13,236 nucleotides of DNA from a virus: the IMG/VR virus record IMGVR_UViG_3300032038_001305. The stretch is one strand, 5' to 3'. The first letter of the stretch is position 1, and every line of letters begins with the position of its first letter. The notes beneath the pieces were generated by a model, which was not told where the DNA came from, did not search any database, and was given only the letters and a program-made list of their open reading frames with translations. Below, one piece after another: positions 11,051 to 11,512 of this stretch. The position numbers and the translations under genes are program-made.

Positions 11051-11512
11051 ATGATTAATAGTTTTTCTGGACAATATTATTTTTTAAGCAATTTTTATCC
11101 TTCTTGTATTTATCTTAAAGTGCAAAATGATTGGATTGCCTGTCGAACTGTTGAACATGCCTTTCAAGCTAGTAAAACTATCTATCCTCGACAATAGTTA
11201 GAAATTATCTCAGCTGAAACACCCGGCAAAGCAAAAAGATTAGGACGACAATTAATTCTTCGCAATGACTGGGAAGATACTAAAATAAATGTTATGCGAC
11301 AGCTTTTAATGCAAAAATTTGCTGATATTAATTTAAGAGTTAAGCTTTTAGCAACAGAAGATGAAGAATTAGTAGAAGGTAATTATTGGCATGATAACTT
11401 TTGGGGTAATTGTTCATGTCCAAAATGTAAAGATATTCAAGGAAAAAATGTTCTTGGAACACTTCTCATGGAAGAAAGAGAACGAATTAAAAAGACATTA
11501 AAGGGTGATTAA
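11051..11512 (+). pseudogene. NADAR-domain (YbiA/DUF1768-like) gene interrupted by a single in-frame TAG at 11195-11197. It is either a nonsense pseudogene or translated by amber readthrough or recoding.
   Basis: A strong RBS (AAGGAGGG) sits 9 nt before the ATG at 11051. The translation is MINSFSGQYYFLSNFYPSCIYLKVQNDWIACRTVEHAFQASKTIYPRQ*LEIISAETPGKAKRLGRQLILRNDWEDTKINVMRQLLMQKFADINLRVKLLATEDEELVEGNYWHDNFWGNCS...GKNVLGTLLMEERERI. This aligns co-linearly with E. coli YbiA/NADAR (FSNF...P...WPTSEHYFQAQK...AARMGR...W...VM...KF...LLAT....LVE...D.YWG.G.....GKN.LG.LLMELR) across the TAG with no frame change. The ORF track shows only the downstream 72-aa fragment (11294-11512). Confidence 0.7.

Follow-up and report, generated by a model that had tools for sequence, protein, structure and literature searches.

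Gene content of the window and the NADAR gene

The window, by which is meant the whole stretch of 13,236 nucleotides analysed here (IMG/VR record IMGVR_UViG_3300032038_001305), has a GC content of 30.3% and carries almost all of its genes on the + strand. The NADAR gene (11051-11512) comprises 153 codons, from an ATG at 11051 to a TAA at 11510-11512, and contains a single in-frame TAG at 11195-11197 (codon 49) with no further lesion in the gene. A reading made earlier from the sequence alone (the sequence-only reading) had pointed to a strong ribosome-binding site and to homology with the NADAR family on both sides of this TAG, and both observations hold. The ribosome-binding site AAAGGAGGG lies at 11033-11041 on the + strand, with its GGAGG 10 nt 5' of the ATG. 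When the TAG is bridged, residues 8-147 match positions 9-163 of the 163 of the Pfam NADAR profile (PF08719) in one stretch running through the TAG, with a score of 92.5 bits against a cut-off of 35.1 (E 4.4e-26). E. coli YbiA (2b3w) matches the bridged protein with an E value of 1.4e-13 and has an Arg opposite the TAG column.

Codons 1-48 (11051-11194, +), covered by the Pfam match and by alignments with 2b3w and 8bau, include the EHAFQASK motif, and codons 50-153 with the terminal TAA (11198-11512, +) include the GKAKRLGR basic loop, W74, E109 and the HDNFWG motif. Residues E35, K42, GKAKRLGR (59-66), E109, D115 and W118 align with the active-site residues named in PMC11543638, E35 and K42 corresponding in the alignment to the catalytic E43 and K50 of the P. 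nicotianae NADAR, whose roles are taken from the same source. The catalytic position is occupied by Glu (E109), as in the YbiA type. The active-site residues flank the TAG, with E35 and K42 upstream and the GKAKRLGR loop, E109, D115 and W118 downstream. The window makes up almost all of its source, a 13,351-bp ENA metagenome contig for which public gene calling splits NADAR into 48-aa and 72-aa products, and because catalytic residues lie on either side of the TAG, each of these pieces would be nonfunctional alone. The 72-aa ORF is in the same frame as NADAR and starts at an ATG at 11294 (Met-82), which has no Shine-Dalgarno sequence.

A unit of six genes (7767-11512) ends with NADAR, which is preceded in it by two small ORFs, an RNase_T-like exonuclease, an RNA-ligase-like protein and a 157-aa ORF. 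A promoter-like site (TTGATT, 17 nt, TATAAT) at 7708-7736 on the + strand, located after a terminator hairpin, is probably, to judge from its sequence, the start of this operon. At the other end, a predicted intrinsic terminator hairpin with a T run (11497-11529, +), kept in the relative L010, overlaps the final NADAR codons, and an extended -10 promoter-like site (TTGATT, 17 nt, TG-n-TATAAT) at 11525-11553 (+) would serve the next transcription unit. The terminator-plus-promoter module TTGATTTTTTATAAAAAATATGATATAATATATATAG is found in three near-identical copies, at 883-919, about 7708-7745 and 11525-11561, where none is expected by chance, and its recurrence partitions the window into transcription units. 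Genes resembling those of RNA repair are distributed around NADAR (1164-1580, 5282-6130, 6137-6958, 8335-9114, 9131-10576 and 12262-13023); the set consists of an HD phosphohydrolase, an RlaP-like nucleotidyltransferase, two calcineurin-like phosphoesterases, the RNase_T-like exonuclease and the RNA-ligase-like protein, and is supplemented in relatives by an AAA_33 kinase, a flotillin/Band_7 protein and a PIN-PhoH protein. For the minus-strand gene at 1-586 no close viral relative was identified, and the gene occupying the same place in the relative L002 is not its homologue.

The TAG of NADAR is the only in-frame TAG in the real genes of the window, among about 4,100 codons, and reading TAG as sense merges NADAR alone. 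The other complete genes (n=18) end in TAA (13) or TGA (5) and never in TAG. The sequence-only reading, which counted about 19 other genes, was right that no gene ends in TAG, but the argument is weak: in a comparison set of standard-code phages of about 30% GC, TAG ends only 0-5% of long ORFs, so that its absence as a stop in the window says little. Two further candidates for recoded codons were discarded. An in-frame TAG at 7728, aligned with a TAG of a relative, lies inside the conserved intergenic terminator/promoter module, and a pair of W (TGG) and TAG at 6942 precedes the point at which that gene probably starts. An Rfam search of the window identified no RNA element and no read-through element.

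Genetic code and suppressor tRNAs of the relatives

Relatives were retrieved with the NADAR gene and the gene for a protein resembling the major vault protein (MVP-like, 1965-4436), and are IMG/VR contigs of 45-240 kb. The closest, IMGVR_UViG_3300026549_000035 (183 kb), can be aligned over 76% of the window with a nucleotide identity of 86%; its MVP-like protein is 94% identical and its NADAR has 91% amino-acid identity, and synteny between the two breaks upstream of about 1100. A megablast search against deposited phages gave no match to the window, and at the protein level the MVP-like gene had matches of only 38-44% identity, in unannotated huge phages, which left no complete annotated relative for comparison. 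The source of the window is a low-GC phage, probably large like the relatives.

The genetic code was tested through coverage by ORFs of at least 100 codons, with TAG or TGA read as sense. With TAG as sense, coverage rises from 0.59-0.75 to 0.83-0.94 in L002, L003, L004, L006, L007 and L010, and from 0.69-0.80 to 0.90-0.91 in L193-L195, the relatives from Logan and ENA. The gain in the nearest relatives amounts to 10-24 points in all of them, and that with TGA as sense is far smaller, at most 10 points. A more distant member, L009 (IMGVR_UViG_3300024270_001991), whose MVP-like protein is 63% identical, shows an increase from 0.82 to 0.96 with TGA as sense and no rise with TAG, and the family seems to hold both TAG- and TGA-recoded members.

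The TAG sites of the relatives were surveyed by translating ORFs from one TAA or TGA stop to the next and comparing them all against all. Conserved alignments of non-overlapping ORFs contained 138 TAG sites, 41% of which stand opposite a TAG of another genome, and among the residues opposite these sites Gln is enriched 4.9-fold and Lys 1.4-fold, all others being depleted. The BLOSUM62 scores of residues opposite 104 TAG sites are likewise highest for Q (131.5), followed by K (76.6) and E (61.1). Internal sites in conserved alignments number 139, as against about 3-4 at the ends of orthologous genes, and the Pfam matches of PIN_4, GIY-YIG and LAGLIDADG domains cross TAG codons in the closest relative. 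Other conserved genes with in-frame TAG, which the sequence-only reading had proposed to look for, are thus present in the relatives, while the window contains none besides NADAR. The core genes of the block represented by the window have few TAGs in every relative.

The ORFs richest in TAG in the relatives (5-10 TAGs) are homing-endonuclease-like insertions, which the window does not possess. They are located at 13570-14478, 15333-16157 and 2583-3758 in L002, at 12582-13301 and 17644-18600 in L010, and at 10300-11238 in L193. Types encountered include proteins with Zn-ribbon repeats and a DUF559-like C-terminus, GIY-YIG proteins and LAGLIDADG proteins, and in L193 the PhoH gene is split by a LAGLIDADG ORF.

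A tRNA with a CUA anticodon was identified in the closest relative (L042:8228-8302), within an array of 16 tRNAs about 10.8 kb before the MVP-like gene, and matches the Rfam tRNA model with 51.6 bits. Ten further related contigs contain one or two tRNA(CUA) genes each. These tRNAs possess G73 and a weak or unpaired 1-72 position, and the majority are closest to the tRNA-Gln of the phages themselves. Pyrrolysine was considered and set aside: the 'Pyl' label given by ARAGORN reflects the anticodon alone, and Gln is favoured both by the residues found opposite TAG and by the likeness of these tRNAs to tRNA-Gln. The scan for a tRNA(CUA), also suggested from the sequence, therefore succeeded in the relatives and not in the window; neither the window nor the 13.35-kb source contig contains any tRNA, and the contig stops short of the position of the array in the relative. 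In the closest relative a DUF2828/DUF7788 protein adjoins the array, about 8 kb upstream of the MVP-like gene, and related recoded phages carry tmRNA genes inside their tRNA arrays (L047:6970-7279 and L050:6309-6657).

Searches for more sequence from the same strain brought little. The DUF2828 protein was used as a marker for a tRNA array in the same sample, and its nearest matches were contigs of about 2.5 kb from other samples. Exact-protein look-ups with five window genes, aimed at a longer contig of the strain, recovered just three contigs: the 13-kb source itself, a near-duplicate of it and a Logan contig of 3.8 kb. The exact 26-mer spanning the NADAR TAG was absent from JGI metagenomes, and a protein scan for NADAR in JGI data gave nothing closer than the known 183-kb relative.

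The TAG at codon 49

The codon context of the TAG is CGA CAA TAG TTA in the window and in the Logan contig L107, CGA CAA CAA TTA in L010 and L193, and AAG CAG CAA TTG in L194 and L195, so that codon 49 is CAA in the latter four. Position 49 is Gln in the seven nearest protein clusters (P0001-P0007, 67-92% identity). The sequence-only reading had described the TAG as lying at a variable position corresponding to R in YbiA. This is correct for YbiA and for the family at large, the column containing R in 15, K in 3 and Q in 2 of 29 phage NADAR homologues, but in the near subfamily the position is fixed as Gln. The change from CAA to TAG takes two substitutions, and by way of CAG both steps are synonymous under code 15. 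A mirror swap is found 3.7 kb upstream, in a gene (7450-7686; L002:16575-16856) resembling T7 gp5.9, of the RecBCD-inhibitor family: there the window has CAA (7498) and L002 has TAG (LLYQAHKL and LLYxAHKL, respectively).

The exact 48-aa NADAR product occurs in three contigs on record, including L107 (Logan SRR11487848). L107 is 92.9% identical to the window over 3.85 kb, with 257 mismatches, and has the identical TAG, which is therefore not an assembly artefact and has outlasted the divergence of the strains. The NADAR genes of the two differ at 8 positions, all after the TAG, of which 6 are synonymous and 2 non-synonymous (pS 0.095, pN 0.008, binomial P 0.0013, on just these 8 substitutions). 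The TAG allele thus persists under purifying selection downstream of the TAG. For the NADAR segment pS between window and L107 is 0.07, compared with 0.23-0.38 in the neighbouring genes, and this low divergence indicates that the segment may have been exchanged recently between strains.

A TAG at a gene end was encountered in the RNase_T-like gene, whose stop is TAA in the window (9112-9114) and TAG in L002 (18279) and L107 (1404-1406). In these two orthologues the TAG is followed by 7 codons and then by a TGA overlapping the start of the next gene; read as Gln, it would add a short basic tail, KGRRKNE or KRRKKNE, an extension that appears tolerable. The TAG-ended genes of L002 and L107 indicate that gene ends have not been cleared of TAG.

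Taken together, the NADAR gene is most probably intact, with the TAG at codon 49 (11195-11197, +) decoded as Gln, as the orthologous codons suggest, through a phage suppressor tRNA; the genome of the window would then carry such a tRNA too. The Gln-49 codon, CAA in the intact relatives examined, would have changed to TAG synonymously in a lineage reading TAG as glutamine. A phage tRNA(CUA) would insert Gln at codon 49 and give a full-length NADAR of about 18 kDa, for which a predicted tryptic peptide containing Gln at this position is TIYPRQQLEIISAETPGK; otherwise host release factor 1 would terminate translation at a 48-residue fragment without half of the active site. The sequence-only reading had taken a simple nonsense mutation as the conservative explanation and had named suppressor-tRNA-dependent expression and reassignment of TAG as alternatives. 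The relatives, recoded at TAG and provided with tRNA(CUA), favour the alternatives, which in these phages are one mechanism, and the default becomes the less likely reading: besides the recoded relatives, it is a Gln codon that was replaced, the TAG is kept in L107, and selection acts downstream.

A pseudogene, i.e. a NADAR gene of a standard-code phage inactivated by nonsense mutation and yielding only the 48-residue fragment, is accordingly judged unlikely. The lack of a tRNA in the window, the fact that this TAG is the sole one in frame in 13 kb, and the splitting of the gene by public gene callers would all agree with it, as would the TAG that ends the RNase_T gene of the other TAG-bearing strain. 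Recoded and standard-code phages can moreover share more than 90% ANI (10.1101/2021.08.26.457843), and for this reason kinship alone does not fix the code of a genome. A nonsense mutation would nevertheless have had to arise by two substitutions from CAA exactly where the codon specified the amino acid for which TAG stands in the relatives, and the allele has survived 7% divergence, with synonymous changes outnumbering the others 6:2 downstream of it. The gene retains its ribosome-binding site, reading frame and terminator and shows no second lesion, and the near relatives with readable flanks are all TAG-recoded.

Leaky termination, in which a near-cognate host tRNA-Gln would read the stop at a low rate and give little full-length enzyme with no dedicated suppressor, is considered very unlikely. 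A low dose of enzyme may suffice, and the window has no tRNA; but the lineage possesses dedicated tRNA(CUA) genes, its ORFs with as many as 10 TAGs would be beyond the reach of low-level leakage, and the Rfam search revealed no read-through element. The nucleotide after the NADAR TAG is T, which also follows 23% of the in-frame TAGs of the relatives and thus constitutes no special context signal. It is extremely unlikely that the TAG is a sequencing or assembly error, or that separate polypeptides of 48 and 72 aa assemble into an enzyme. Both ORFs are called by gene callers and the 72-aa ORF is in the same frame; the same TAG, however, is present in a separately sequenced and assembled contig that differs at 257 positions around it, the ATG at 11294 lacks a Shine-Dalgarno sequence, and two such polypeptides would lose codons 50-81, with the conserved GKAKRLGR loop and W74.

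Given decoding as Gln by a phage suppressor tRNA, the TAG might act as a regulatory gate instead of being a neutral synonym, tying the timing or dose of NADAR to that tRNA in an operon otherwise readable by the host code, an idea we regard as doubtful. If it is true, the gp5.9-like RecBCD-inhibitor gene of the sister phage would be gated likewise, close strains would toggle between CAA and TAG in such genes, and TAG would be ambiguous, being Gln in NADAR and, where the RNase_T gene ends, a stop or a short extension.

Known systems and the possible role of the enzyme

Decoding of TAG as Gln ('code 15') has been described as a mechanism in gut phages (10.1101/2021.08.26.457843), and in crAss-like phages it has been verified by metaproteomics (PMC9523058). 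The present phages share with them the in-frame TAGs in conserved genes, a phage tRNA(CUA) in the relatives and the alignment of TAG with Gln. In the published picture early and replication modules stay compatible with the standard code (10.1101/2021.08.26.457843), and in the relatives too the replication/early modules are nearly free of TAG and the homing endonucleases rich in it. The genome of the window differs in that it shows one TAG, on a contig without a suppressor tRNA, and in that its recoded gene belongs to a non-structural operon otherwise compatible with the standard code. In genome size (about 45-240 kb), in having an apparently TGA-recoded cousin (L009) and in their TAG-rich homing endonucleases, the relatives are reminiscent of the Agate, Jade and Sapphire groups.

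Classical amber suppression depends on supE-type tRNA-Gln (CUA) acting on amber mutants. The mechanism proposed here is similar in that a tRNA-Gln-like molecule with a CUA anticodon would compete with release factor 1 at UAG and insert Gln there, and different in that the suppressor would be encoded by the phage and the TAGs are fixed and conserved in many genes rather than being laboratory mutations.

NADAR genes are present in 468 deposited phage genomes, each less than 60% identical to that of the window. One phage NADAR, AdfN (T4 gp30.3), removes the ADP-ribosylation introduced by DarT1 from DNA and thereby counters DarTG1 (PMC11257639). Like AdfN and the NADARs of YbiA and DarG1 type, the window protein has a single domain of about 150 residues with EHxxQxxK, a basic loop and HDxxWG; its E109, of YbiA type, contrasts with Asp in the DarG1 type and with the His reported for phage NADARs (PMC11543638). 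The protein would be an ADP-ribosyl glycohydrolase acting on ADP-ribosylated nucleic acid, in counter-defence against DarT or in RNA repair. A role against DarT is plausible by analogy with the published phage NADARs (PMC11257639), and a role in RNA repair is equally open, because genes for an RNA ligase, an exonuclease and phosphoesterases neighbour NADAR.

Gene calling with the standard code has divided NADAR into two meaningless fragments in public databases, and would likewise hide real proteins across this phage lineage. The exchange of CAA and TAG in both directions between near relatives provides an example of stop-codon recoding at the level of strains, of use in studying how recoding spreads through a phage genome; what is known of code-15 phages and of NADAR enzymes is unchanged by it.

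The 823-aa protein encoded at 1965-4436 resembles the eukaryotic major vault protein (Pfam MVP_shoulder 1e-20, Vault_3 4e-9). Eight phage contigs of 14-240 kb encode versions of it with 63-94% identity, and proteins 38-44% identical to it are found in LR756500, LR756501 and LR756503, which are unannotated huge phages. One preprint has described MVPs in phages (10.1101/2023.11.10.566534).
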